Source: Escherichia phage AV125
Strand: one strand, 5' to 3'
DNA length: 64,000 bases
Sequence record: OR352955.1
Shown here: positions 8,525-62,021 of the stretch, one piece after another
Numbering within the stretch: the first letter of the stretch is position 1
How the letters are laid out: every line of letters starts with the position of its first letter
Made by a program: the position numbers and the translations under genes
The notes under the pieces: generated by a model
What the model was told of the DNA's origin: nothing
The model's input: the letters and a program-made list of their open reading frames with translations, nothing else
Databases searched by the model: none

Positions 8525-8715
8525 TGTTTAGTTTCTTGGTAATTGTTATGGTTGTTCTTTTCGCGGCATGGCTTTGGGATTTTGACCCAGGAGCAGCGCA
8601 GCAAAGAGCTACAGACTGGAAAGAACAATGTATTGTGCTCAAACATGAACGAAATGCAGAGAAATTTCTTGACCTGGAGTGTGATCGCCTTGTAAGATAC
8701 AAGCAAGACAAATAA
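8515..8715 (+). CDS. small membrane protein
   Basis: Start at ATG 8515; MPIVFSFLVIVMVVLFAAWLW is one predicted TM segment. Confidence 0.45.
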   Translation: MPIVFSFLVIVMVVLFAAWLWDFDPGAAQQRATDWKEQCIVLKHERNAEKFLDLECDRLVRYKQDK

Positions 8716-8729
8716 CCTTGAGGTGCAAA

Positions 8730-8918
8730 ATGGTAATTGAGATTAAACTTGAGTATGCTGGCGCTGTTGCTCTGATCGCACAAATGCTTGGAGCAAAGAT
8801 TGAAGAAGTGTATATCAACGCTTGGAGCGTAGAGATTGATGTTCCTATGGACAACATTGCTAATCGCTTGCTGGTGGCAGAGTGTGAACGCACCAACATA
8901 ATCTACAAAGGAGCATAA
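8730..8918 (+). CDS. hypothetical protein
   Basis: Start at ATG 8730 (RBS GAGGTG); 62 aa. Confidence 0.45.
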   Translation: MVIEIKLEYAGAVALIAQMLGAKIEEVYINAWSVEIDVPMDNIANRLLVAECERTNIIYKGA

Positions 8919-21460: not shown

Positions 21461-22276
21461 TTATTTGTTTAAGTGGTCTTCGACCATTTTAATGAAACCT
21501 TCATTGCTGAAGGCTGTTGCAGCTTTTTCTCGGTAAACAAAAACTCCACGATCTTCATAGAGAAGTGTTTCTTCGTAATTAACTCCAGGGTTAACTACAA
21601 CCATTTTTGTACCCATACTAAGTGCAGGAAATAATTCCCAATTAAAATTGATAACTTGGTTTGAACATCCTACTACTACAACCAAATCTTGCATGGTCAA
21701 AGTATCGAACAAGTGAGCCATATCTGCATACAAAGGTGCAGCCTCACCAAAAAATACAACATTAGGCTTCACCCAGTTATAATCATCTATGTTTATACTA
21801 TTGTAACCAATATCTACCAGTGTTTTGTAATCTCCAGGATGCATACGGTAAACTACTTCAGGAAGATATCCGTGTACGTGAATAACAGAATCTCTGTCTA
21901 CACCTGCTCGCTCTAGCAGATCATCAACGTTTGTTGTCAAGTTTACTATTTGGTTAGGATATTCCTTAAACCACTTTGCTATTTGAATATGTGCAGCATT
22001 AGGTTGTACATCTTTAAGCTCAACACGTCTTTTGTTATAAAATTCGTGTGTTTTGGCATACAAATCCATACCGTTCTCGTCTACACCACCGACCACTGGA
22101 AGATCTGGAGATGTTCTAACACGATAACCTGCTTGGAAAGCTCCAATATCGCAGACCTCTTCTAAATCATATTCTTCCCATAAAGCACGACCACTATCTG
22201 TGTCTGTTCTAAATGTTCGAATCCCACTGTCTGCACTTAAACCTGCACCGCTTACAAAAATCACTCGTCTTGGCAT
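21461..22276 (-). CDS. Sir2-family (sirtuin-like) protein
   Basis: VIFVSGAGLSADSGIRTFR (sirtuin GAGIS-x-GIP-x-FR motif), HVHGYL, VVFFGE, VVVGCSNQV; lacks the Cys4 zinc module. Confidence 0.65.
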   Translation of the reverse strand: MPRRVIFVSGAGLSADSGIRTFRTDTDSGRALWEEYDLEEVCDIGAFQAGYRVRTSPDLPVVGGVDENGMDLYAKTHEFYNKRRVELKDVQPNAAHIQIAKWFKEYPNQIVNLTTNVDDLLERAGVDRDSVIHVHGYLPEVVYRMHPGDYKTLVDIGYNSINIDDYNWVKPNVVFFGEAAPLYADMAHLFDTLTMQDLVVVVGCSNQVINFNWELFPALSMGTKMVVVNPGVNYEETLLYEDRGVFVYREKAATAFSNEGFIKMVEDHLNK

Positions 22277-27901: not shown

Positions 27902-28193
27902 AAGGTGTATAGGGTTCCGTATTTCTCATGATCCAAGGACTGCTAGGATTGCTCGGATCATAAGGGCCAAAAGGTTTTATGGTAGGTTGTGTTTCTTTCT
28001 TCTGAATCTCTTCAAAAATACGACGAAGTTCAGAATATTCTTGATCCACCATAAGATTCGGTGCATCTGATTCTACAGCTTGCAGGTTATCTTCCTTAAG
28101 AACAATCTCACGAACAAGATTAACATCTTCTGTTTCTAAGATAACTTCTTTACGGATATTACCTACACTTTGAATAATTGTAATCTTATACAT
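27885..28193 (-). CDS. hypothetical protein
   Basis: 102-aa ORF. Confidence 0.5.
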   Translation of the reverse strand: MYKITIIQSVGNIRKEVILETEDVNLVREIVLKEDNLQAVESDAPNLMVDQEYSELRRIFEEIQKKETQPTIKPFGPYDPSNPSSPWIMRNTEPYTPFEITC

Positions 28194-28936
28194 TAATCCT
28201 CCTCAAGAGTTGAATAAAATTGAAGACCACCGTCCATATCGAAATAAGCAAATGTTAAGTTATTATTGAACACAGATCCAGTATCCATATAAACACGATT
28301 CGCATTGATAATAGGTGTTTTTACATAAGAGTGTCCATGAAACACATAATCCACACCCATCACAACAGGAAGTTTCATTCCCTCTTTAGCACAGTCTACC
28401 ATATCTCTGTCCCACATAAGTGCTTCAGCAAAACGGTTTTCCTGTGTTTTTGTCATCTTCGAAATGTATTCTGGAATATCTGTTACAGGGAGATATTCCA
28501 AAGAAGATGGATACCCACCATGAATAAACGCAAGTTTCATGCCTCTGTAGTTAACAATGAGAACAACAGGTAAATCTTCTGTCATCATTGCTAAGGCTGT
28601 AGCTCCTTCTTCACCACATTCTTCAAAGACCGTATATCCTCCATTTTGATACCAACACTCATAGTAGCTACGATCTCCTTCCAGCATACCTTTAATCATC
28701 ATGTCTTCATGATTGCCACGAATAGCGTAGCGATTGTGTTTACGAGTAAATTCTAAAACACAACGAAAGTTTTGCTTTCCACGGTCAGTAAGATCTCCTA
28801 GAGATACAACCACATCTGTATCTCGGATACCTAACTTTGCCTTTCCTTTTTCATACAAATTATAACAACCGTGTAGATCTCCAATTATAAAAAGATCTTG
28901 ATCGCTTTTAACAGTAATTTCTCTGTGTATGATCAC
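28193..28936 (-). CDS. Ser/Thr protein phosphatase-like metallophosphatase (PPP family)
   Basis: GDLHGC, GDLTDRG, RGNHED motifs in canonical order. Confidence 0.75.
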   Translation of the reverse strand: MIIHREITVKSDQDLFIIGDLHGCYNLYEKGKAKLGIRDTDVVVSLGDLTDRGKQNFRCVLEFTRKHNRYAIRGNHEDMMIKGMLEGDRSYYECWYQNGGYTVFEECGEEGATALAMMTEDLPVVLIVNYRGMKLAFIHGGYPSSLEYLPVTDIPEYISKMTKTQENRFAEALMWDRDMVDCAKEGMKLPVVMGVDYVFHGHSYVKTPIINANRVYMDTGSVFNNNLTFAYFDMDGGLQFYSTLEED

Positions 28937-49767: not shown

Positions 49768-50406
49768 TTAAAAACGGGTATTTAAAAAATAGTTAGACAT
49801 ACCTAACTCTAATGCTTCGAGATTGTAAGCTTCAGCCGCTTCCAACTCTGTAGTATATCTTCCTAAATATTTTGTTTTCTTATCGAAACAAATAAAAGCC
49901 AGCCATTTATTTTTAGCTTTGTCATAGGAGACTCCCCTAAAATTTGAATACTTGCTTTTTGTTTTACCTCTGTTTCGAATCTGTTCACTTTGTGTTGTCC
50001 ATCTGCAATTCTCTTTACTGTAACCAAGATCAACATTTACACGATCTAAACTATGGTTTTTAGGTCGCTTACCCATGTCTTTCAAGAAAGTGTTAAATGA
50101 TTTCTTCCAATCATCACAAACAGTAATTCCTCGTCCACCGTATCTATCATAGTGCTCACAATTTTCATTATAACACCTTTGTAGCATATTACGATAACTT
50201 TCGTAAGTATATCGTTCCTTATTAGATAGGCCATCGCCCTTACTACAATACATGCATTTCGGACTCTTTGATCTTTTCAGACTGGACAATGTTCTTAAAC
50301 TTTCTTTTTGGCATACCAAGCATAAACATACAAAAGTAGTTTGATTGTCAATCTTGGTTTCAGAAAGACGGGAGATTCTAAAATCTCCCTTTGTTGAACC
50401 TATCAT
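49768..50406 (-). CDS. HNH homing endonuclease with AP2 domain
   Basis: SLDRVNVDLGYSKENCRWTTQSEQIRNR (HNH), FRGVSYDKAKNKWLAFI...KYLGRYTTELEAAEAYN (AP2). Confidence 0.75.
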   Translation of the reverse strand: MIGSTKGDFRISRLSETKIDNQTTFVCLCLVCQKESLRTLSSLKRSKSPKCMYCSKGDGLSNKERYTYESYRNMLQRCYNENCEHYDRYGGRGITVCDDWKKSFNTFLKDMGKRPKNHSLDRVNVDLGYSKENCRWTTQSEQIRNRGKTKSKYSNFRGVSYDKAKNKWLAFICFDKKTKYLGRYTTELEAAEAYNLEALELGMSNYFLNTRF

Positions 50407-51128
50407 TTTTTGATAATAGCTGCAATGTTGGGTTTAATGAAACCTGACCACTTCATGATCTTGCCTTTATCATCAAAGAACACATACACTTTCTGTTTTT
50501 CATTATAAACAGCATGAACACCAGTGTATGCTCCTTCTGGACGATTGGCATTTCGTTCTTCAATTGCAGTGCATTCTTGTGCAATGGCTGAATCGATATC
50601 TGAAGTTTTCCAAGTTTTCAGCAACTGTTGTTTAGTTGGATACTTGGAATCATTACTTTTCAATACCTCTTTAATAACTTTCTTTTCTGGATATTTTGAA
50701 CGGATTAGAGTGTCACGAGACATACGCATAATACCAGCAGCCATTAGTGCCATTTGAACTGGCTCTGTAAATGTTTGTTCCAAAGCATCAAAATCAGTAT
50801 ACACAGTTGGAGTAAAAACATCGCCTACAGCATAGTCCAAGAAATTCATCGTATGTTCTTCACCAAAGAACATGTAGGTCAGATAACTGGATACTACAAA
50901 AATATCCGCTGCTGCATCCAAGAGTTCTACATGATCGTTTACTTTCGCGGCTGTTTCATACTCTTTAAGCTCTTCACGAACGAATCCGATTTGGGACATA
51001 AATAGCTCTTGAGTGAATTCAGGTTGTTCACCACCTCGTGCTTTAGCATTCCAATCAATCACGTGCTTCGCTGCATTTTTGAAAAATTCAGTATCGAACT
51101 TAATATCTTTAAAAAAATTCTCGATCAT
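50403..51128 (-). CDS. MazG-like all-alpha nucleoside triphosphate pyrophosphohydrolase (dCTPase/dUTPase-like)
   Basis: REELKEYETAAKVNDHVELLDAAADIFVV acidic EExxE...D helix pair. Confidence 0.5.
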   Translation of the reverse strand: MIENFFKDIKFDTEFFKNAAKHVIDWNAKARGGEQPEFTQELFMSQIGFVREELKEYETAAKVNDHVELLDAAADIFVVSSYLTYMFFGEEHTMNFLDYAVGDVFTPTVYTDFDALEQTFTEPVQMALMAAGIMRMSRDTLIRSKYPEKKVIKEVLKSNDSKYPTKQQLLKTWKTSDIDSAIAQECTAIEERNANRPEGAYTGVHAVYNEKQKVYVFFDDKGKIMKWSGFIKPNIAAIIKK

Positions 51129-51137
51129 TATAACTCC

Positions 51138-51320
51138 TTATTTAAAATAGCTTTCTAGAAAGTTGCTAATATTTACTACAGTCTCACCCATGTAAATTCC
51201 TGCGAAACCGAAAACAAGCATACGTGGAATATTGAAATACCATTTATCCGCTGGAAAAGATGCCAGAATTACAATAGCAATTGCTATCAGCATCATAAGA
51301 ATTGTTGCTAAAATTATCAT
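51138..51320 (-). CDS. small membrane protein
   Basis: Start at ATG 51320; MIILATILMMLIAIAIVILASF is one predicted TM segment. Confidence 0.4.
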   Translation of the reverse strand: MIILATILMMLIAIAIVILASFPADKWYFNIPRMLVFGFAGIYMGETVVNISNFLESYFK

Positions 51321-51511
51321 AAAAATGCCTCCAGGTATTTTGAACAATGATAAGCTAAGAAACAAGAAACTACCGCATACCCAACTCCAGACATACATGA
51401 ATCAATCACAACACATACGGTTCTTTTCTTTGAATTCTTAGGAAAGTTTTCCGAAGCAGTCATACAATAAAAAGAAAGCACACTGAAAACGATTAAAATG
51501 GCTAAGAACAT
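51317..51511 (-). CDS. small membrane protein
   Basis: MFLAILIVFSVLSFYCM hydrophobic N-terminus; 64 aa. Confidence 0.4.
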   Translation of the reverse strand: MFLAILIVFSVLSFYCMTASENFPKNSKKRTVCVVIDSCMSGVGYAVVSCFLAYHCSKYLEAFL

Positions 51512-51520
51512 TTTTCCTCC

Positions 51521-52648
51521 TTACTCTGCTGGTTCCCAAGTGCCTGGGATCATTTCTCGAATACGAACACCAACAGGTTTTGTTGGAATACCTTCATCTG
51601 AAAATTCTTCATACTCTATTTCAACGAACTGATTAATCAAGGTAGAAGCATTCTCTGCTTTACGATAATTGATAGTCTCATGAGCATCTTTACGCATTAA
51701 GAATTCGACTACTTTACCATTTTCCATCTCACCTGTCAACACTCCATCGCCATTTTTATCGCTTTTTGAATTTGTTACTTTAACTTCAAGGGTATGGCGA
51801 GGCTTACGTTTAATAACATCGTAAGAACGTTTATCAAATTCGTAAACTCCGTGAGCATTACGATATACTACACCTTCAGCTTTCTCAAGTAAAGCTTTTT
51901 CATAGAAAGCATCAAACTGTTCTTGGTTTTCAATATACTCTGTATGAACTACACAAATAAGCTCGTCAAGACCATAATCTTCAACTACTGCCTTAAGAGC
52001 AGCAAGAGCATCAACACGTTTTTCAAACGGTAGACCTGGAACTGGAATATCGTATACGTAATAATTCAGCAAAGGTGTATTTGCATTATGCTTCTTCCAG
52101 GCACTGTTAATTTGTTGCAGACTAAGGACACCTAACCCAGCAAACACTTCACCATCAAGAGGATGACCAACAACTTCACTAATAAAGTTTGGAATACCTT
52201 TCCAATGAGGTGGCAGGTTATACACTTCCCCAGCTTTTGATAAACACTCCCCTTTCATGTTAATCATAGAACGTAACCCGTTCAGTTTGTATTGTGCATA
52301 ACCAGGGAACACAACCCTTTCAGGATAATCTTTATAATCCTGGCATTTCATTGGTGTGGAAGGAACATGGTTTTCAGCTTCTTCTTTTGTTTTATAATAG
52401 CCATTCTTTAACTGTTTTGTCCATTTGGCAAAAGCTTCAAGTTCAGCTTGTTCTTCCGGTGTTGTTTCATTGGAACGACCAATGTTTTTTGCTTCTGCTG
52501 TATAAGATTTTTCTGTGATCTTTCCACCTACTCTTCCATGAGCTACAGTAACAACTGCACCATCTGTATACACTGTCCACTGTTTAAGTTTTCCTTTTGA
52601 ATCTTTACCATACAGCGTTTGATTTGTTTGTTGCATTAGTCCTCCCAT
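51521..52648 (-). CDS. ATP-dependent DNA ligase-like nucleotidyltransferase
   Basis: Motif I YKLNGLR (KxDGxR with Asn for Asp), motif III LDGEVF, motif IV EGVVYR, motif V VIKRKP. Confidence 0.65.
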   Translation of the reverse strand: MGGLMQQTNQTLYGKDSKGKLKQWTVYTDGAVVTVAHGRVGGKITEKSYTAEAKNIGRSNETTPEEQAELEAFAKWTKQLKNGYYKTKEEAENHVPSTPMKCQDYKDYPERVVFPGYAQYKLNGLRSMINMKGECLSKAGEVYNLPPHWKGIPNFISEVVGHPLDGEVFAGLGVLSLQQINSAWKKHNANTPLLNYYVYDIPVPGLPFEKRVDALAALKAVVEDYGLDELICVVHTEYIENQEQFDAFYEKALLEKAEGVVYRNAHGVYEFDKRSYDVIKRKPRHTLEVKVTNSKSDKNGDGVLTGEMENGKVVEFLMRKDAHETINYRKAENASTLINQFVEIEYEEFSDEGIPTKPVGVRIREMIPGTWEPAE

Positions 52649-52857
52649 TTAAAAACTGAAATTTTCAATCTGTTACACACTTCATCCAAATCTGCGTCGA
52701 GTAACGTTGTAGATGTTGCCAACATGTAATCAATGCTTGTGAAACCTTGCCCTTTGGCATAGTCAAGCATATCTTCATACATATCTTCAAGATCACCGTC
52801 ATCAAAAGTAGCTAGAAAATCCTCGTCTCCGCTACGAACATAAAATGCAGTACTCAT
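52636..52857 (-). CDS. hypothetical protein
   Basis: 73-aa acidic ORF. Confidence 0.45.
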   Translation of the reverse strand: MSTAFYVRSGDEDFLATFDDGDLEDMYEDMLDYAKGQGFTSIDYMLATSTTLLDADLDEVCNRLKISVFKWED

Positions 52858-53045
52858 TCTTCTTCATCCCAAGATTCAAAAGCACAACAATCATCGGTTT
52901 CTATAATACCGACACGTCCGCAGGTATTGCAAGTGATTTTATCCCCGTAGAATAAATAATTTTTATCACCCTCTGTGTTTACAGTTATGTCATTACTACC
53001 ACAAGGGCAAGTCAGCCAACCAACAACAACGATATCTTTTTTCAT
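52854..53045 (-). CDS. small zinc-ribbon protein
   Basis: CPCG ... CNTCG. Confidence 0.45.
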   Translation of the reverse strand: MKKDIVVVGWLTCPCGSNDITVNTEGDKNYLFYGDKITCNTCGRVGIIETDDCCAFESWDEEE

Positions 53046-53054
53046 AATCCCTCC

Positions 53055-53381
53055 TTAAGCGTTAAGTTCGTTGTTGAGTTCGTAAATCTCTTCTTGAAGA
53101 GCATCAATCTCTTCCTCCAAACGGGAGATCTCTTCTTTTAGATATACCATTTCAGATTCTTTCTCTTCTAATTCATTTTCAAATTTTACTTTATTTGCCT
53201 CATTTTCATAATGCAGTTCAGCGTAATCATCACGCATTTGTTCAATAAGATGAATCAGAGACAAGATATAATTGTCTCCCGTTTCATCACGCCACTCTTC
53301 ACCGTGACGGAGAACGGTAATTCGTCCAGTATCTTCATCTAAAATTGTCTCATATTTACGATCATCTGTATAAATCTGCAT
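53055..53381 (-). CDS. coiled-coil protein
   Basis: C-terminal heptad-rich EEISRLEEEIDALQEEIYEL. Confidence 0.5.
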   Translation of the reverse strand: MQIYTDDRKYETILDEDTGRITVLRHGEEWRDETGDNYILSLIHLIEQMRDDYAELHYENEANKVKFENELEEKESEMVYLKEEISRLEEEIDALQEEIYELNNELNA

Positions 53382-53390
53382 TATTTCTCC

Positions 53391-53795
53391 TTATTGAAGT
53401 TTAAGTGAACCACGAAGACGTTTCTCTTGCTGATCACGGATATATTGTGGAACCTCGTGAATTGAATCATTACCGTGCCTATTTTCAACAATTAAAGAGA
53501 TAACTTGATAACCAAACTCTTCAGCAAGAGCTAGATAAGGTTTAAGTTCTTTCTCTGTGGTTGAAGTATTAGAAACAATAATCTTGTTAAGATTAGATGC
53601 CATAGCATCACGAACAATATCCTGACACCATGCGTGTGCTTTACCTACATTTTCTGGCTTCCAATCGTAAACACCACTCTCTGTGTAATGATATTGATCT
53701 GCCTCACAGATAGGCCAATAACCTTCAGAAATAATTTCTGCTACTGTAGATTTACCAGCACCTGAAACGCCACGTAAAATGATAAGTTGTTTCAT
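53391..53795 (-). CDS. polynucleotide kinase-like P-loop kinase (kinase domain only)
   Basis: MKQLIILRGVSGAGKSTVAEII and IIVSNTSTTEKELKPYLALAEEFGY parallel T4 Pnk [22 protein letters not shown] and VIISDTNLNPERR. Confidence 0.65.
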   Translation of the reverse strand: MKQLIILRGVSGAGKSTVAEIISEGYWPICEADQYHYTESGVYDWKPENVGKAHAWCQDIVRDAMASNLNKIIVSNTSTTEKELKPYLALAEEFGYQVISLIVENRHGNDSIHEVPQYIRDQQEKRLRGSLKLQ

Positions 53796-54728
53796 TTATC
53801 CTCCAAAAAAGTTTTCGATTTTTTCACGTCGCTCTTGCTGATTTAAAGCAGCCCATTGAGTCTTCGTAAAATTATTTCGAATCCATTCTAACAAAGCGTA
53901 ATATTCTTCGTCAACCATTTGTTTGGCATTTTTTGGATTATCCCAAATCAGATCCCACTTTTTATCTCCACCGCGCATAAGAAACTTCTTAGTAAGGTAG
54001 TGTGGTGATTTAATTTTTAAAAGTAAGTTGAACGGATAGTTTGTTTCACGAACTACAAACCCTTCGTGTTTACAATGTTTAGACATTTCAACAACATCTG
54101 AAAACTTAACCATTGGATGAACTTCAGGACGCTTAAATTTGGTGACAGAAGCAATTCCATCAAGAGCACCTTCAGGTAACATAAAACTTGTCCCATCAGG
54201 ATTTTGAATTCTGGCACCAATTAAGTATGCACCTGGTTCTTCTTCGACAATATGCGGATCAGAAGGATCACAGATTTCAAAAAGGAAAGTTGCTTTTGCA
54301 CTCTCTGTCCATTTGATGAAATGTTCTATGTCATCACACTCTGAAACAATATGATTCTTTGCAATACTTGCAAAATCTGATTCAAGGCTTCCTGTTGTCG
54401 ATACAATAAGTTGACCTTTATATACACCTACAGAGGCCATAAAACCATTTACTTTACGAACCACATCTACAAGTTCATCCAATGGTAGATCTGTGCCATT
54501 CTCAAAACGATTAAAAATCTTAGTGAAAGGCCAAATAACAACATTGTCATCAGCATCAACAACGATTCCGCGACATTCTAGAAGACGAGAATCAATGCTC
54601 CATAAGTTATCCCAGAAAACTTTGTTCTTATACTTAAGAACAGATAGACCAGAATACTCTCCTTCTTTATATGTTTTCTTATGAACTAAACCTTTTTCAA
54701 CCAAATCGTCGCAATTAAATTTAGTCAC
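53796..54728 (-). CDS. RNA ligase-like nucleotidyltransferase
   Basis: VRKVNGFMASV (KxNG motif I as in tRNA-ligase type adenylyltransferases), HEGFVVRE (motif IV), LLLKIKSP (motif V). Confidence 0.5.
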   Translation of the reverse strand: MTKFNCDDLVEKGLVHKKTYKEGEYSGLSVLKYKNKVFWDNLWSIDSRLLECRGIVVDADDNVVIWPFTKIFNRFENGTDLPLDELVDVVRKVNGFMASVGVYKGQLIVSTTGSLESDFASIAKNHIVSECDDIEHFIKWTESAKATFLFEICDPSDPHIVEEEPGAYLIGARIQNPDGTSFMLPEGALDGIASVTKFKRPEVHPMVKFSDVVEMSKHCKHEGFVVRETNYPFNLLLKIKSPHYLTKKFLMRGGDKKWDLIWDNPKNAKQMVDEEYYALLEWIRNNFTKTQWAALNQQERREKIENFFGG

Positions 54729-54729
54729 A

Positions 54730-55281
54730 TTACTCTCCTTTGATTATTTTGTGATGGTCTACAGTCACGATATCTCGTTTACTCATCATAGAAATTATCT
54801 CATCAAAATGCAAGATTTTTCCGTGTGCATCCCAACCCACATCTAACATTTTACCATAAGCTTCATCAGGGAAAGATCCGTGGGAATGCCCGTGTAGCAT
54901 GATTGATCCACGACCTTGTTTATTCCAGGAGGCCATAGGGTAATGACTTAAGACGAAGAACAGCTTCTGATATTTCACTTCGTCATAATACACCACTTCA
55001 CCATACTCTGCAAGCACTTCTCGGTGTTTGCTGTAGTCATGGTTCCCAACACAGTAGGTGATATCTCCTTGGAGACGAGAAGCAATTTTACGGGTATCTT
55101 CTTCAGTTCCGAAACAGAAGTCGCCCAAATGCCACATCTTAACACCAGGAGTAGTAGCACATTTGTTCCATGCTTCGATCAAGGCTTCTGTCATGTGGTC
55201 CATATCTTCCCACGGACGATATTCAGGAGCAAACTCTCGAATACGTTTATGCATAAAATGCAAATCGCTTGTAATAAACAT
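54730..55281 (-). CDS. calcineurin-like metallophosphoesterase
   Basis: SDLHF, GDFCFG, GNHD, HGHSH metal-binding motifs. Confidence 0.75.
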   Translation of the reverse strand: MFITSDLHFMHKRIREFAPEYRPWEDMDHMTEALIEAWNKCATTPGVKMWHLGDFCFGTEEDTRKIASRLQGDITYCVGNHDYSKHREVLAEYGEVVYYDEVKYQKLFFVLSHYPMASWNKQGRGSIMLHGHSHGSFPDEAYGKMLDVGWDAHGKILHFDEIISMMSKRDIVTVDHHKIIKGE

Positions 55282-55637
55282 TAGTATAATCCCTCGCTAA
55301 ATAATTCATGGTCGTGACCATTACGCTCATGGTCGATCTGGTCAGCATTTTCCGCGATGATGTAAGCATCCGCACGACTCCACCAATTGTAATACTGATC
55401 GATAAAGCCTTGATTATCTGGTGTGCACAAAGTTTTGTTGATTACACCTGCTTCTTTCAACACGTTTAACTGTGCATATAGTACGGGATTTGCATGTCGA
55501 ACACAAGGAATAATTAACTCTTCACCATTATTCAAAATATACTTATTTGCAGCACAGACGATAACACGTTGCGCATAATGACCCTCACCCATCCAGGTAA
55601 GAGGTTGGTAACAAATATTGTTTTCAATACCACTCAT
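55281..55637 (-). CDS. hypothetical protein
   Basis: 118-aa ORF, ATGA overlap. Confidence 0.5.
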   Translation of the reverse strand: MSGIENNICYQPLTWMGEGHYAQRVIVCAANKYILNNGEELIIPCVRHANPVLYAQLNVLKEAGVINKTLCTPDNQGFIDQYYNWWSRADAYIIAENADQIDHERNGHDHELFSEGLY

Positions 55638-55796
55638 TGTTTCCTAATCCTCCTCTCTTAAGTTATCCTCGAAAAAACTAGTGTCTGGAAGTAAAAGATC
55701 ATTACTTGTGTCGGGCCAATCCTCTTCTTCTCGGTAGATAAAGTAACCTTCGTCCTCTTCTTGTTCCGACCAAACCGAATGATGCATGTTCTCTCC

Positions 55797-56141
55797 TTAG
55801 TAGTGCACACGAATCATTTTAATACCATAACGCAGCATAGATTCTTTTGCAAGCATGAATTTATCCCCAGCGGCGGGATTAGAAGTATGCACGAAAATGG
55901 TGGGTGAACCAAAGCAAGGTTTACCAAACGCCAGAAGTTCTTCCAGGTACAGGAAAACATCATACCCATCTTGGTCTGACTCCATACCTAAATCATTGTC
56001 AAAAGACCACTCGGTTACTCTTCGATACAGTTTAGCAGGATCGTTGAGAAAGGCCATAGCTTCTTGTGACGTTTTAAACCAAATTGCATCCTCCTGTCCA
56101 TAGTCGGCTGGGTTCCGCATATCATCTATCCAAACTTTCAT
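55797..56141 (-). CDS. hypothetical protein
   Basis: 114-aa ORF. Confidence 0.5.
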   Translation of the reverse strand: MKVWIDDMRNPADYGQEDAIWFKTSQEAMAFLNDPAKLYRRVTEWSFDNDLGMESDQDGYDVFLYLEELLAFGKPCFGSPTIFVHTSNPAAGDKFMLAKESMLRYGIKMIRVHY

Positions 56142-56151
56142 ATAACCTCCT

Positions 56152-56622
56152 TTAAGCTGGCATGATTAAAAAAGAACTTTCCACTTCAAAATGCCAATCA
56201 TCAACAAGCCCTGATTCCCAATCCTTCTCTTCATGGAAAGAGCAAATCCAACGGTACATACCTGGCGGTGTATTCTCAACATCTTCTGGCAACCCATAAT
56301 CCAAAGCTGTCTTACCGTTCTCTGTAAAACTAGGATGGAGATTAGGAGCCTTCAGTACAGAAACCATACCTCCAACATCCACAGCTACGATCCACTCTGT
56401 CATGTATGGGCTGTCATATTGAGGCTCATCAGAACCTACCTCAACAGCCTCTGTGCGTAAGATGATAATAGCCTGCTCTGTGATTGGGGCTTTGACAATA
56501 TAACCGTGGTCCTCAAAAAGATCGATAACCTCGAACTCATCGCCGTTTTCGACACCATAACTCTTATTCAAAGAGATAAACTTCGGGTTATCATCGTAAG
56601 CTTTAGTTACTTTAATTCTCAT
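56152..56622 (-). CDS. hypothetical protein
   Basis: 156-aa ORF. Confidence 0.5.
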   Translation of the reverse strand: MRIKVTKAYDDNPKFISLNKSYGVENGDEFEVIDLFEDHGYIVKAPITEQAIIILRTEAVEVGSDEPQYDSPYMTEWIVAVDVGGMVSVLKAPNLHPSFTENGKTALDYGLPEDVENTPPGMYRWICSFHEEKDWESGLVDDWHFEVESSFLIMPA

Positions 56623-59894: not shown

Positions 59895-59966
59895 GGCCCT
59901 GTAGCTCAATGGGAGAGCTGTCGGCTCATAACCGATAGGTAGCTGGATCGAAACCAGCCAGGGCCA
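59895..59966 (+). tRNA. tRNA-Met (anticodon CAT; could also be Ile2 or initiator)
   Basis: Cloverleaf folded by hand: acceptor GGCCCTG/CAGGGCC, anticodon loop CTCATAA, T-loop ATCGAAA; CCA encoded. Confidence 0.8.
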
Positions 59967-59971
59967 CCAAA

Positions 59972-60043
59972 GTCTTTATGGTGTAATGGATAGCACAGGA
60001 GTCTTCTAAACTCTTAGTCAAGGTTCGATTCCTTGTAAAGACA
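59972..60043 (+). tRNA. tRNA-Arg (anticodon TCT)
   Basis: Acceptor GTCTTTA/TAAAGAC, anticodon loop CTTCTAA, T-arm CAAGG-TTCGATT-CCTTG; CCA encoded. Confidence 0.8.
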
Positions 60044-60242
60044 CCAGAACATTTTAACATGAATTAGCTCAAGTGATTTGAACCCACTACTGATCATGGT
60101 GGCAGAGAATGAGGCAAGTATGTCAGACATTATAAACAAAGGCCACGGTTATATTAGAAGACATAAATGCTCGAAGAGCACCGTTCGTGGAGAACGGGGG
60201 TTGGTGGAGTCACCATTCATGGTAAAATGTTTTAAAAAACTA

Positions 60243-60271
60243 TTGACAACAAACATTATTTTATGTTAGAT
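60243..60271 (+). promoter_or_regulatory. sigma70-like promoter within tRNA cluster
   Basis: TTGACA 60243-60248, 17-bp spacer, TTAGAT; 10 nt before tRNA-Ser. Confidence 0.55.
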
Positions 60272-60280
60272 TATAAGTAT

Positions 60281-60368
60281 GGAAGGGCAAATCGATGTGG
60301 CGACGAAAACGGTCTTGAAAACCGCCGAGCTTGAAAGAGCCTTGGGAGTTCGACTCTCCCTCCTTCCG
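60281..60368 (+). tRNA. tRNA-Ser (anticodon TGA), class II
   Basis: Acceptor GGAAGGG/TCCTTCC, anticodon loop CTTGAAA, long variable arm, T-arm GGGAG-TTCGACT-CTCCC; CCA encoded. Confidence 0.8.
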
Positions 60369-60376
60369 CCAGATTA

Positions 60377-60459
60377 GGTAGATTGGTGAAATGGTAGCCA
60401 CGACAGTTTGCTAAACTGTAGTCGGAAACGGCGTGTAGGTTCGAGTCCTACATCTACCG
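60377..60459 (+). tRNA. tRNA-Ser (anticodon GCT), class II
   Basis: Acceptor GGTAGAT/ATCTACC, anticodon stem ACAGT/ACTGT, loop TTGCTAA, variable arm with GAAA loop; CCA encoded. Confidence 0.8.
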
Positions 60460-60461
60460 CC

Positions 60462-60592
60462 AAGTTCTTTTTAATGTAGCTTACTTTAGCAGAGTAAATC
60501 TTCGGCAAGTGGCGGTAACCACTTTACCGATACCTCATAGTTAGTGGTGTGAACACTGGCTATTTTAAAAAGAATTTAAATATTAGTATTTA
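60462..60592 (+). ncRNA. candidate small RNA between tRNAs
   Basis: 131-nt spacer with no tRNA fold and no ORF; internal GTGG...CCAC complementarity; T4 carries small stable RNAs at the equivalent place. Confidence 0.3.
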
Positions 60593-60677
60593 GGTGAGTT
60601 AATTCCGTAGGGGTAGCGGGGCAGACTGTAAATCTGTTATCATTGCGATTCGGGTGGTTCGACTCCATCACTCACCA
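60593..60677 (+). tRNA. tRNA-Tyr (anticodon GTA), class II
   Basis: Closely parallels E. coli tRNA-Tyr: GCAGACTGTAAATCTG anticodon arm, long variable arm, acceptor GGTGAGT/ACTCACC; CCA encoded. Confidence 0.8.
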
Positions 60678-60686
60678 CCAAATTAA

Positions 60687-60769
60687 GATGAGTTGGCTGA
60701 ATGGTTTAAGCGGCGGACTGTTAATCCGTGTTCGAAAGAACAATATAGGTTCGAATCCTATACTCATCG
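60687..60769 (+). tRNA. class II-type tRNA with GTT (Asn) anticodon by loop geometry
   Basis: Perfect 7-bp acceptor GATGAGT/ACTCATC, T-arm ATAGG-TTCGAAT-CCTAT, 3-bp D-stem, 15-nt variable arm (GTTC-GAAA-GAAC), anticodon loop CTGTTAA closed by GCGGA/TCCGT. Confidence 0.5.
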
Positions 60770-60779
60770 CCAGAATTAT

Positions 60780-60856
60780 GGACTTGTAGAGTTAAGGTAA
60801 ACCCCCAGTCGCCAATAGGCTTCTGGAATTGCAGGTATCGAATCCTGCCGAGTCCC
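60780..60856 (+). pseudogene. tRNA-like element with aberrant anticodon arm
   Basis: 7-bp acceptor GGACTTG/CGAGTCC and T-arm GCAGG...TCGAAT...CCTGC present, but no canonical 5-bp/7-nt anticodon stem-loop and no CCA. Confidence 0.3.
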
Positions 60857-60862
60857 AGCATT

Positions 60863-60934
60863 GCTCCTATAGTATAATGGCTATTACAACGGTTTTGTAA
60901 TCCGTGGATCTCTGTTCGATTCAGTGTGGGAGCA
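60863..60934 (+). tRNA. tRNA-Thr (anticodon TGT)
   Basis: Acceptor GCTCCTA/TGGGAGC, anticodon loop TTTGTAA with a 4-bp stem, T-loop TTCGATT; CCA encoded. Confidence 0.65.
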
Positions 60935-60937
60935 CCA

Positions 60938-61200
60938 ACACAACATTAAGAGCACTGTGATTGATCGTCGTATCCTGTGCACAAGGTCTGCTCGAAAGAC
61001 AGTGTTCTTAGTATTGTGTTGATCACAAAAAGAGTCACCCGAAACTTGACCGGAGTAGGGTTGGATGGGGCAAAATGAGAAGCGGCTCTCCCATCGACAG
61101 CAACGAAGAATAATATTTGACTTTGGTTTTGTATTATTTTAAGTTAGCTTACCGAACGTAGGGCTAGTCACCCAACGGGATACTCGTCACTGTCCCAATC
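60938..61200 (+). ncRNA. candidate structured RNA or spacer within tRNA cluster
   Basis: About 260 nt without ORF or tRNA fold; CACTGTG ... ACAGTG and other inverted repeats. Confidence 0.25.
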
Positions 61201-61210
61201 AATAAAAGTC

Positions 61211-61240
61211 TTGACAACAAATAGTAAAATGTAGTATAGT
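61211..61240 (+). promoter_or_regulatory. sigma70-like promoter within tRNA cluster
   Basis: TTGACA 61211-61216, 18-bp spacer, TATAGT; 11 nt before tRNA-Gly. Confidence 0.55.
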
Positions 61241-61251
61241 AAATATATATG

Positions 61252-61322
61252 GCGTTCTTGGTGTAGCGGTAGCATTCCGTCCTTCCAAGTCGGCGGCACG
61301 AGTTCGATCCTCGTAGAACGCT
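61252..61322 (+). tRNA. tRNA-Gly (anticodon TCC)
   Basis: Acceptor GCGTTCT/AGAACGC, anticodon loop CTTCCAA, T-arm ACGAG-TTCGATC-CTCGT; CCA encoded; D-arm not cleanly resolved by hand. Confidence 0.65.
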
Positions 61323-61423
61323 CCAAATTATTTAATAAAGGGTTGCCAGAAAACTTTCTCTTTTACTCATGGTTTTCTCCTTCTCTCACACTTCTTCTGG
61401 TTGCCCTTCATTAAATGATTTAT

Positions 61424-61496
61424 TGGTTTGTAGTGTAGTCCGGTAGCACACGACACTTTGACTGTCGTAGGTTTGGTTCAAATCCAGACAGACCAG
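61424..61496 (+). tRNA. tRNA-Gln (anticodon TTG)
   Basis: U1-A72 acceptor TGGTTTG/CAGACCA, anticodon stem CGACA/TGTCG, loop CTTTGAC, T-loop TTCAAAT; CCA encoded. Confidence 0.8.
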
Positions 61497-61592
61497 CCAT
61501 ATAACAAAGGTGAGTCACTACCTTAAGTGTGAAGTTAAAAACGAGGAGCCGCCGAACACTTTCTTTTGCGGTGTACCTTTAGAATGTTATCA

Positions 61593-61666
61593 CGGGACGT
61601 AGCACAGCTTGGTAGTGCGCTCGCTTTGGGAGCGAGAGGTCGAGTGTTCGAATCACTCCGTCCCGA
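61593..61666 (+). tRNA. tRNA-Pro (anticodon TGG)
   Basis: C1-G72 acceptor CGGGACG/CGTCCCG as in E. coli tRNA-Pro, D-stem GCAC/GTGC, anticodon stem CTCGC/GCGAG, loop TTTGGGA; CCA encoded. Confidence 0.85.
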
Positions 61667-61675
61667 CCAATTAAA

Positions 61676-61746
61676 TGTTTCGTAGTTCAATGGTAGAACC
61701 CACGACTGATAATCGTGAGACACAAGTTCGATTCTTGTCGAAACAA
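61676..61746 (+). tRNA. tRNA-Ile (anticodon GAT)
   Basis: Acceptor TGTTTCG/CGAAACA, D-stem GTTC/GAAC, anticodon stem CACGA/TCGTG, loop CTGATAA; CCA encoded. Confidence 0.8.
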
Positions 61747-61751
61747 CCAGT

Positions 61752-61821
61752 TTCCCGTTAGACTTACAGGATAAGAGTTCCACAGCTTATTGTGATGCTG
61801 GTTCGAATCCAGCACGGGATA
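61752..61821 (+). pseudogene. tRNA-like element with non-canonical anticodon region
   Basis: Acceptor TTCCCGT/ACGGGAT (6 of 7 pairs) and perfect T-arm GCTGG-TTCGAAT-CCAGC, but the central region only forms ATAAG/CTTAT with a 10-nt loop; no CCA. Confidence 0.3.
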
Positions 61822-61827
61822 CATAAT

Positions 61828-61903
61828 AGCGGGATAGAGGAGTCTGGTCGTCCTCGCCAGTTTCATATGCTGGAGATCATCGGTTCAAATCCGATTCCCG
61901 CCT
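61828..61903 (+). tRNA. tRNA with CAT anticodon (Met or Ile2), A1-C72 acceptor mismatch
   Basis: Anticodon stem CCAGT/GCTGG, loop TTCATAT, T-arm ATCGG-TTCAAAT-CCGAT, acceptor AGCGGGA/TCCCGCC; CCA encoded. Confidence 0.65.
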
Positions 61904-62021
61904 CCAAATATCGCTTGCCAGCGGTATCTTTGAAGACCTTGCCTGGTTCCTTCTAAGATGGAGGGGTGCGACTCCTTAACGCACAATTATAATAAAGCAT
62001 TTCAACTTAACAGTATTTACT

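Follow-up and report, generated by a model that had tools for sequence, protein, structure and literature searches.

Separate kinase, metallophosphoesterase and Rnl1-like ligase genes of Escherichia phage AV125 probably form an RNA healing-and-sealing module

Do the closely packed genes for a polynucleotide-kinase-like protein, a metallophosphoesterase (MPE) and an RNA-ligase-like protein of Escherichia phage AV125 act together in RNA repair, and does the DNA ligase gene beside them belong to the same pathway? We addressed this question in a stretch of 64,000 nucleotides of the sequence record OR352955.1, hereafter the window. The four open reading frames (ORFs) described in an earlier note made from the sequence alone were all found on the minus strand. 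They encode an ATP-dependent DNA ligase of 375 amino acids (aa; 51521-52648; PF01068, phrog_114), a stand-alone PNK-type P-loop kinase of 134 aa (53391-53795; AAA_33, phrog_505), an Rnl1-like ATP-dependent RNA ligase of 310 aa with a GTG start (53796-54728; PF09511, phrog_562) and a calcineurin-like MPE of 183 aa (54730-55281; Metallophos, phrog_547). Along its entire length, the region 51000-56200 shows 99.6% identity to genomes of Phapecoctavirus (Stephanstirmvirinae, genomes of ~150 kb), including those of Escherichia phages ESCO13 and Schickermooser, in which these genes are named "putative DNA ligase," "putative polynucleotide kinase," "putative RNA ligase" and "putative phosphoesterase or phosphohydrolase" in GenBank. 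Thus, the sequence was already known. Our analyses indicate that the kinase, MPE and RNA ligase probably constitute a phage RNA healing-and-sealing pathway encoded by separate, tightly packed and probably co-translated genes. This is the RNA-repair role suggested in the earlier note, and it is supported by profile and fold comparisons, by linkage in 45/52 loci, by domain fusions and by ligase swaps.

The 310-aa protein matched PF09511 (RNA_lig_T4_1, 4.8e-15) and phrog_562 (7e-71) and contains nucleotidyltransferase motifs I (K92-V-N-G), III (E151), IV (E222-G223) and V (K238/K240). A search of the PDB with the single sequence was weak (best E = 0.027) and a profile was required; the family profile matched T4 Rnl1 (2c5u) with E = 1.5e-24, and the alignment includes motifs I, III, IV and V. 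The protein is thus a ligase and not of the non-ligase fold that would have refuted the earlier note. Residues R53, K70, K92, E151, E222, K238 and K240 align to R54, K75, K99, E159, E227, K240 and K242 of T4 Rnl1, respectively. K92, E151, E222, G223, K238 and K240 are invariant in 84/84 ligase sequences. R53 and K70, whose T4 counterparts R54 and K75 contact the ATP gamma-phosphate (PMC6379707), are invariant as well, and the clade has Ile or Val where T4 has F76. Four further residues, N94, H159 (8 residues past the motif III Glu), K248 and R252 (8 and 12 residues past the motif V Lys), are present in 83/84 sequences, and N94, which gives motif I its KxNG form, is also found in 149/150 representatives. 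The corresponding residues of T4 Rnl1 are D101, I167, H250 and S254; in the outlier, the KKDG ligase of Streptomyces phage BillNye, they are D/I/H/T, all switched together.

The C-terminal region sets this ligase clade apart from T4 Rnl1, whose tRNA-specificity domain (approximately residues 255-374) defines the Rnl1 clade. The median number of residues past motif V is 71 in the ligase clade vs. ~130 in T4 Rnl1, and the profile alignment between them stops near T4 residue 284. The short C-terminal region, together with a TIGR02308 equivalog score of 25.9 that falls below the cut-off of 242, thus points to an Rnl1-like catalytic domain and not to an Rnl1 equivalog. In the PDB, the ligase profile found no significant match to the ligase domain of Trl1 (Trl1-LIG), nor did it detect the ligase (Rnl4) of C. 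thermocellum Pnkp (CthPnkp) or the Pnkp1-associated Rnl structures. The second nucleotidyltransferase, the KxNG motif of which was associated with tRNA-ligase-type enzymes in the earlier note, is a ligase with KVNG, but it is closer to T4 Rnl1 than to Trl1 despite this motif. Placement in the Rnl4 clade, which was prompted by the tri-domain fusions described below, was rejected because the profile misses both CthPnkp-LIG and the Pnkp1-associated Rnl structures.

The kinase contains the P-loop G9-VSGAG-K15-S and matched AAA_33 (1.4e-10), a PHROG family named "ATPase" (1e-56) and phrog_505, "polynucleotide kinase" (3e-08). Again, a PDB search with the single sequence gave no meaningful match and a profile, built from 10 sequences of the family, was required. 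Its best match was the kinase domain of T4 Pnk (1ltq, E = 2e-07, T4 residues 1-145), followed by the Trl1 kinase of Mucorales (9drz, 9.7e-07), Pnkp1 of the Pnkp1/Rnl/Hen1 system, PSTK and the CthPnkp kinase. D33 is aligned with the catalytic Asp35 of T4, and G9, G14, K15 and D33 are kept in 73/75 kinase homologues. When the AlphaFold (AF2) model of the kinase (pLDDT 90.9) was compared with known structures by Foldseek, the CthPnkp kinase (4jt2, TM 0.77), T4 Pnk (1ly1, 0.75), Pnkp1 (0.74) and PSTK (0.73) ranked first, and adenylate kinases and gluconokinase reached TM values of 0.49-0.55 and one sugar kinase (4eun) 0.66. These comparisons support the identification of the 134-aa protein as a PNK-type enzyme, a predicted 5'-OH polynucleotide kinase whose modelled fold resembles polynucleotide kinases more than it does kinases of nucleotides or sugars. 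The resemblance to the T4 Pnk kinase domain that had been noticed earlier is thus borne out by both profile and fold, and neither points to a nucleoside or dNMP kinase unrelated to Pnk.

The MPE matched Metallophos (3.1e-05) and phrog_547 (6.5e-56). All metal-ligand motifs expected of a calcineurin-like enzyme, as it had been called, are present (D6xH8, G53D54, G79N80H81, H113, G131H132 and H134), and the nine metal-site residues are kept in 66/67 homologues. Among solved structures, the nearest is that of Aquifex aq_1665 (1xm7, E = 1e-20), which comes from structural genomics and has no assigned function, and no match to lambda phosphatase or the CthPnkp phosphatase was found at E<=0.1 in the PDB profile search. 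The homologue search returned stand-alone MPE proteins only and no fusions. The phosphatase domain of bacterial Pnkp belongs to the MPE superfamily and provides a precedent for the healing of RNA 3' ends by an MPE (PMC2190708). Given that the nearest solved relative has no assigned function, it is from such analogy that we infer a role in RNA 3'-end healing, in which the MPE is predicted to act on 2',3'-cyclic-phosphate or 3'-phosphate ends. The motifs of these three proteins are not chance motifs, as their catalytic residues show complete or almost complete conservation among the homologues compared (84 of the ligase, 75 of the kinase and 67 of the MPE).

Linkage among the three genes was counted in IMG/VR loci of at least 14 kb that were seeded by ligase, kinase or MPE; the ligase-seeded set comprised 80 loci, 52 of them at least 14 kb long. 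Both kinase and MPE were found in 45 of the 52 ligase-seeded loci, and the MPE lay <=8 kb from the ligase in 48 of them. Reciprocally, 39 of the 56 kinase-seeded loci contained the MPE <=8 kb from the kinase, and an RNA ligase of either of two families was present in 35 of these 39 loci. Among 13 GenBank phage loci outside Phapecoctavirus that were picked by ligase similarity alone, kinase and MPE were located <=8 kb from the ligase in 12, which represent Vequintavirinae, Justusliebigvirus, Pakpunavirus, Otagovirus, two Demerecviridae genera, Ralstonia phage RSP15, Saclayvirus and a Limnohabitans phage. The remaining locus, from a Streptomyces phage, has a distant KKDG ligase and a T4-type PNK gene instead. 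The genes occur in at least five orders (MPE-ligase-kinase, kinase-ligase-MPE, ligase-kinase-MPE, ligase-MPE-kinase and kinase-MPE-ligase).

Domain fusions, which were sought in the 150 best representatives from a search space of 1.84 billion proteins, connect the same activities. They comprise kinase-ligase (P0284, P0335, P0357 and P0375), ligase-kinase (P0291 and P0378) and MPE-ligase (P0340) proteins and ten tri-domain proteins of the order kinase-MPE-ligase, in which the two N-terminal domains are similar to bacterial Pnkp. The tri-domain proteins (P0304, P0334, P0384 and others) have 700-812 aa and consist of a Pnkp-like kinase, a lambda-phosphatase/PrpE-like MPE and a ligase of the Rnl1-like clade; as their TIGR04075 scores of 79-132 are far from the cut-off of 750, they constitute a separate tri-domain family. 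One of them (L098, 6001-8439) is encoded on a 110-kb phage-like contig with an adjoining Nudix gene. In kinase+MPE loci without the Rnl1-like ligase clade, 8 of 10 tested ORFs near the kinase, mostly directly after it, were PF09414 RNA ligases with an N-terminal PHA02142 OB domain, i.e., Rnl5-like ligases. Since either an Rnl1-like or an Rnl5-like ligase is found beside kinase and MPE, the pair behaves like a unit for end healing with which different RNA ligases can be combined. The assignment of the three genes to one pathway is thus supported by neighbourhood statistics, by domain fusions and by ligase displacement.

The layout of the genes in the window is compact. The MPE gene overlaps by 1 nt with the gene for p118, a T4_Y16D-family protein (PF26092) of 118 aa and a possible accessory member (55281-55637, minus strand); the gap between MPE and ligase is 1 nt, and the ligase stop is followed by the kinase start with 0 nt between. 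The kinase, MPE and ligase genes are probably co-translated. No convincing intrinsic terminator was found on the minus strand at 51.5-58.4 kb, and the first good one is the hairpin 48843-48820, past RdgC, which matches a terminator annotated in Schickermooser. With no terminator from ~58.4 kb to this hairpin, the genes are probably part of one long co-directional transcription unit. A promoter scan was uninformative (39 sites vs. 33.5 expected). A cluster of 10 tRNA genes (59895-61906, plus strand; Met, Arg-TCT, Ser-GCT, Asn, Thr-TGT, Gly-TCC, Gln-TTG, Pro-TGG, Ile-GAT and Met) lies 4 kb from the module, beyond a divergent promoter region, and includes an eleventh tRNA-like sequence (60593-60677) with an Rfam score of 39 bits and without an ARAGORN call. 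An Rfam scan of the window returned tRNAs alone.

In the proposed pathway, the 134-aa kinase would phosphorylate the 5'-OH of cleaved RNA, the MPE would open and remove the cyclic or 3'-phosphate to give a 3'-OH, possibly with help from the cREC (cyclic-phosphate-processing receiver-like) protein described below, and the Rnl1-like ligase would then join the 3'-OH to the 5'-phosphate via lysyl-AMP at K92. Our analyses show the families and folds of the proteins, the conservation of their catalytic residues and the linkage of their genes by neighbourhood and fusion, and from these we infer the substrates, end chemistry and biological target of the module; tRNA is the likely target by analogy with T4 and in view of the 10-11 phage tRNA genes 4 kb away.

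A close counterpart of the module is the RNA repair system of T4, in which Pnkp (PseT, kinase plus HAD phosphatase) and Rnl1 (gp63) counter the PrrC anticodon nuclease. The same three chemical steps would be carried out in both systems, and the kinase domain, by profile and fold, and the adenylyltransferase domain of the ligase are homologous. In contrast to T4, the kinase is a stand-alone protein of 134 aa, a binuclear MPE is found in place of the HAD phosphatase, the ligase has KxNG instead of KEDG, and ~70 residues past motif V replace the 120-residue tRNA-specificity domain. The split into three separate polypeptides, with an MPE substituting for the HAD phosphatase of T4 Pnk, had been proposed before and agrees with the three ORFs and MPE motifs found here. 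CthPnkp of the Pnkp/Hen1 system uses the same enzyme superfamilies for the three steps, its kinase has the fold closest to that of the phage kinase, and its MPE is a proven 2',3'-cyclic phosphodiesterase/phosphatase (PMC2190708). It is, however, a single kinase-MPE-ligase polypeptide (TIGR04075) with an MPE of the lambda-phosphatase type, whereas the module consists of three genes and its MPE is aq_1665-like. No match to a Hen1-type methyltransferase was found among the Pfam-scanned ORFs, which are part of the ORFs of the window, and no search was aimed at Hen1. Trl1 of fungi and plants (Rnl6 clade), which combines ligase, kinase and cyclic phosphodiesterase, shares KxNG, a His past motif III and an Arg 12 residues past motif V at analogous positions, and the kinase profile also matches the Trl1 kinase domains of Mucorales, but the ligase motif spacing is T4-like here and the module has no 2H-type cyclic phosphodiesterase.

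Several observations weigh against this assignment. The T4 Arg38 equivalent, which contacts the phosphoacceptor, is not conserved in the kinase: AV125 has H36, and the residues seen at this position in the family are His, Phe, Leu, Trp and Gln. The MPE belongs to the aq_1665-type family and not to the lambda-phosphatase type used by bacterial Pnkp, and the window-type MPE was not itself seen fused to a ligase, as the fused MPEs are lambda-phosphatase/PrpE-like. Approximately half of the MPE-seeded and kinase-seeded loci are without the Rnl1-like ligase clade. The close 153-kb relative L099 (IMGVR_UViG_3300014004_000001) has neither ligase nor kinase and retains cREC, p118 and MPE; at its positions 8540-8900, which correspond to 54742-53392 of the window, a 112-aa HExxH ORF takes the place of exactly the ligase and kinase genes, while the retained MPE is 95% identical and the DNA ligase keeps KLNGLR. 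As L099 has kept the MPE without ligase and kinase, the MPE may also have a ligase-independent role. Finally, we found no experimental study or closer solved structure for any member of the ligase, kinase or MPE clades.

Additional neighbours of the three genes include cREC and MazG-like genes, both of which, like p118, are missing from the earlier note. The cREC gene (55797-56141, minus strand; 114 aa) matched PF20274 (cREC_REC) at 3.9e-17, and its motifs WxDD, FDNDLG and HTSNP are kept in the homologues of phages Mydo, FFH2, outra, KE22 and GAP31. The cREC domain is predicted to process cyclic phosphates and has been linked to RNA ligase genes (PMC7824862; PMC9503650), so that the protein is a predicted accessory phosphoesterase. 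The 241-aa MazG/PRA-PH-like nucleotide pyrophosphohydrolase (50403-51128, minus strand; PF01503 at 2.9e-06, phrog_671) is a recurrent neighbour in Vequintavirinae and Stephanstirmvirinae, and MazG was counted among the members of the published neighbourhood (PMC9503650). Between the MazG-like gene and RdgC lies a 212-aa AP2-domain ORF (49768-50406, minus strand; PF00847, 5e-07) that is missing in Schickermooser, where the corresponding gap is 56 nt, and that is probably a homing-endonuclease-type insertion. A Sir2-family protein of 271 aa (21461-22276, minus strand; PF02146 at 1.9e-22), also not mentioned in the earlier note, is 56% identical to Mydo Sir2 and is encoded by the last gene of a minus-strand block 31 kb from the module. 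Sir2 genes are directly beside the kinase or DNA ligase gene in Mydo, FFH2, KE22 and Hena1; none is found between kinase and DNA ligase in the window. In the 80 ligase-seeded loci, cREC, MazG-like and Sir2 genes were near the ligase in 8, 11 and 9, respectively, and genes for NadV-like (nicotinamide phosphoribosyltransferase-like) and Prs-like (ribose-phosphate pyrophosphokinase-like) proteins were located <=8 kb from it in 40 and 33. Such genes, of a type that serves the salvage or reconstitution of NAD+, are found, e.g., in L003, L005-L008, L010 and L013-L016, and none in the window.

A related gene neighbourhood has been described computationally for phages V5 and Mydo, consisting of a sirtuin, a T4-like tRNA ligase, cREC, a nucleotide kinase and MazG, with an occasional calcineurin-like phosphoesterase (Iyer et al., 2022; PMC9503650, section 3.7.3). 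The ligase, kinase, cREC, MazG-like protein and MPE are homologous between this type and AV125, where all five are encoded within 50403-56141, and the gene order in Mydo, FFH2, KE22, GAP31 and Hena1, including the downstream DNA ligase, is syntenic with the window. The Phapecoctavirus version differs from the published type in three respects. Sir2, which is inside the cluster there, is displaced by 31 kb here; cREC, which is between ligase and kinase there, is upstream of MPE here; and the T4_Y16D-family p118 is present here, while Seunavirus and Mydovirus have an unrelated 118-aa gene. The 118-aa gene at the equivalent position of Mydo was considered as a p118 homologue and rejected, as the two are not homologous. 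Judged from sequence, the module is a genuine and widespread one of RNA-repair type, related to that predicted computationally in other phages. Given the published neighbourhood type (PMC9503650) and the GenBank annotations, it is less novel than the earlier note implied; what our analyses add are linkage statistics from reciprocal scans, domain fusions, the displacement of one ligase by another, a signature of the ligase clade and the L099 relative.

Some observations concern the remainder of the window and the databases. The kinase-to-DNA-ligase gap contains three small ORFs (52636-53381, minus strand) that encode a 108-aa coiled-coil protein, with the database name "hol-like chemotaxis," a zinc-ribbon-like protein of 63 aa that has two CxxC pairs and an acidic protein of 73 aa; for the first and third of these, homologues were found only in Stephanstirmvirinae-type loci. 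A second, larger MPE of 247 aa (28193-28936, minus strand; PF00149 at 2.7e-13) is encoded at a position unrelated to the module. It should also be noted that several GenBank "Campylobacter phage" records (MG065650, MG065653, MG065644 and others) match module DNA or ligase of E. coli phages: B15 is 99.6% identical to Phapecoctavirus DNA across the module, and the ligase match of C14 and A147 is ~48%, the same as that of Vequintavirinae coliphages, so that the host labels look doubtful.

The kinase, MPE and ligase could instead follow an NAD+-linked route of the fungal/plant type, in which MPE or cREC would leave a 2'-phosphate/3'-OH end, the ligase, like Trl1, would require this 2'-phosphate, NAD+ would be used by the distal Sir2 (or host KptA) to strip the 2'-phosphate from the junction, and cREC and MazG would clear ADP-ribose cyclic-phosphate. 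Such an NAD+-linked role for Sir2 was proposed by Iyer et al. (PMC9503650). The ligase residues N94, H159 and R252, present in 83/84 sequences, are positionally like those of Trl1: in Chaetomium Trl1-LIG, Asn150 is a metal-water ligand, and His227 (+9) and Arg337 (+12) bind sulfate, a proposed mimic of the 2'-phosphate (PMC6379707). Also consistent with this route are the BillNye outlier, whose T4-type residues (D/I/H/T) accompany a T4-type PNK gene, the Sir2 genes that adjoin the module in Mydo, FFH2, KE22 and Hena1 or are present elsewhere in the window, and the frequency of NadV-like (40/80) and Prs-like (33/80) genes <=8 kb from the ligase. The residue equivalences with Trl1 are, however, positional only and read from sequence, and the ligase profile detects T4 Rnl1 and not Trl1. 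Moreover, the same ligase signature is found in domains fused to Pnkp-type kinase-phosphatase modules, and the same kinase and MPE pair also partners Rnl5-like ligases. Pnkp and Rnl5 enzymes use ordinary 3'-OH/2'-OH ends, which counts against a 2'-phosphate-dependent reaction, and Sir2 and cREC are near the ligase in only 9/80 and 8/80 loci. On this evidence we regard the NAD+-linked route as unlikely. Just as unlikely is the idea of a viral counterpart of Trl1 with 2'-phosphate-dependent, NAD+-consuming repair, in which the ligase would join 3'-OH/2'-phosphate ends left by MPE or cREC, Sir2 would replace Tpt1/KptA and the new-fold p118 and cREC would process the by-products.

The genes might also form an anti-defence island of independent enzymes, in which cyclic-nucleotide or ADP-ribose-derived immune signals would be destroyed by MPE and cREC, free nucleotides would be the substrates of the kinase, and the ligase would function separately. 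The MPE family (aq_1665-like) is without an assigned substrate, and the predicted substrates of cREC and calcineurin-like enzymes also include cyclic nucleotides or ADP-ribose derivatives (PMC7824862; PMC9503650). The NAD+-salvage-type genes that are often nearby, the retention of cREC, p118 and MPE without ligase or kinase in L099 and the absence of the ligase from half of the MPE-seeded loci agree with such independence. Independence is difficult to reconcile, however, with kinase-ligase fusions in both orders, with kinase-MPE-ligase tri-domain proteins and with the presence of an RNA ligase of one of two families in 35/39 kinase+MPE loci, and the kinase fold is closest to polynucleotide kinases and not to nucleotide kinases. 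An island of this kind is therefore quite improbable, and the healing-and-sealing pathway is the reading that we prefer.

The adjoining DNA ligase (PF01068, 6e-09; phrog_114, 2.4e-74), the start of which is 4 codons later in the GenBank relatives (371 aa), raises the further possibility that kinase and MPE heal DNA ends, i.e., nicks with 5'-OH and 3'-phosphate, for this enzyme, as mammalian PNKP does. The DNA ligase gene is 0.7 kb from the kinase gene, with the three small ORFs between them, and DNA ligase genes are found <=8 kb from the RNA ligase in 42/80 loci; T4 Pnk also acts on DNA, which is in favour of DNA-end healing. The position and distance of the DNA ligase gene vary, however (it precedes the RNA ligase in those Pakpunavirus and Otagovirus loci that were examined and is downstream in Vequintavirinae loci), and it is missing from about half of the loci. 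Within the sample, the kinase was fused to RNA ligase but never to DNA ligase, the absent RNA ligase clade was replaced by another RNA ligase, and loci L062-L075 retain both RNA and DNA ligases without kinase or MPE. DNA-end healing as the main function is thus very unlikely, and the DNA ligase was rejected as the sealing partner of kinase and MPE because it is never fused to the kinase and is absent from about half of the loci. We read it as a DNA ligase that serves the phage itself and whose gene is a syntenic neighbour, and not a member, of the module; RdgC, exonucleases, ribonucleotide reductase and ThyX are encoded in the same block of nucleic-acid-metabolism genes. Of the earlier description of a DNA ligase next to an RNA-repair-like module, the adjacency stands and membership does not, given its variable position and the lack of fusions to the kinase.

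The Asn in motif I of both ligases, KLNG in the DNA ligase and KVNG in the RNA ligase, was also found as described. Profile classification, which had been suggested as a check, assigns them to PF01068 DNA ligases and to T4-Rnl1-like RNA ligases, respectively, and the conservation of the Asn differs between the two: it is clade-wide in the RNA ligase (83/84), whereas in the DNA ligase KLNGLR is found only in the window and in Justusliebigvirus phage outra, the two Stephanstirmvirinae ligases compared, and 7 homologues elsewhere have KxDGxR. Motif I of the DNA ligase reads K121-L-N-G-L-R; motifs III, IV and V are present as well, K121 is conserved, and D165-G166, E258-G259 and K282 are invariant in the alignment. 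The DNA ligase of African swine fever virus (6imj) has KRNG at the aligned position, and motif I of fungal Trl1 is KENG, in which Asn150 contacts the waters of the catalytic metal (PMC6379707). Thus, Asn in motif I is compatible with a structurally characterised DNA ligase and is probably a tolerated natural variant and not a sign of inactivity.

Many database names of the gene for the 310-aa protein refer to tail-fibre attachment, which T4 gp63/Rnl1 catalyses as its second role; PHROGs and GenBank have transferred this annotation from T4 gp63. That such catalysis is the main role of the 310-aa protein is extremely improbable, as all adenylyltransferase residues are invariant, the gene is among early nucleic-acid-metabolism genes and not tail genes, most of the C-terminal half of T4 gp63 is absent, and the ligase family occurs in Demerecviridae siphoviruses, in which T4-type long tail fibres are not expected.

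In the literature, we found only T4-based or defence-side papers when searching for RNA repair experiments with phages other than T4, and none that joined "Phapecoctavirus" and "RNA ligase." To our knowledge, T4 is the sole source of a phage RNA-repair counter-system that has been tested experimentally. The kinase/MPE/ligase set has a much wider distribution than that of T4: a ligase search of representative proteins gave 2127 matches at E<=0.001, and the set is present in therapy coliphages (Phapecoctavirus and Vequintavirinae), Pseudomonas Pakpunaviruses and Vibrio T5-like phages. If the proposed functions are correct, the module would provide new RNA-end-modifying enzymes, namely a ligase of compact size, a kinase of 134 aa and a small 3'-phosphatase that depends on metal, and the fusions, the ligase swaps and the natural ligase-kinase deletion variant are ready-made controls for tests of function. 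The tRNA-cleaving immune effectors, such as PrrC, RloC, PARIS, retron Eco7, Cas13a, Schlafens, ApeA and DARNA, are a major branch of bacterial antiviral defence, and an RNA-repair module of this type, if confirmed, would account for part of the host range of these phages.

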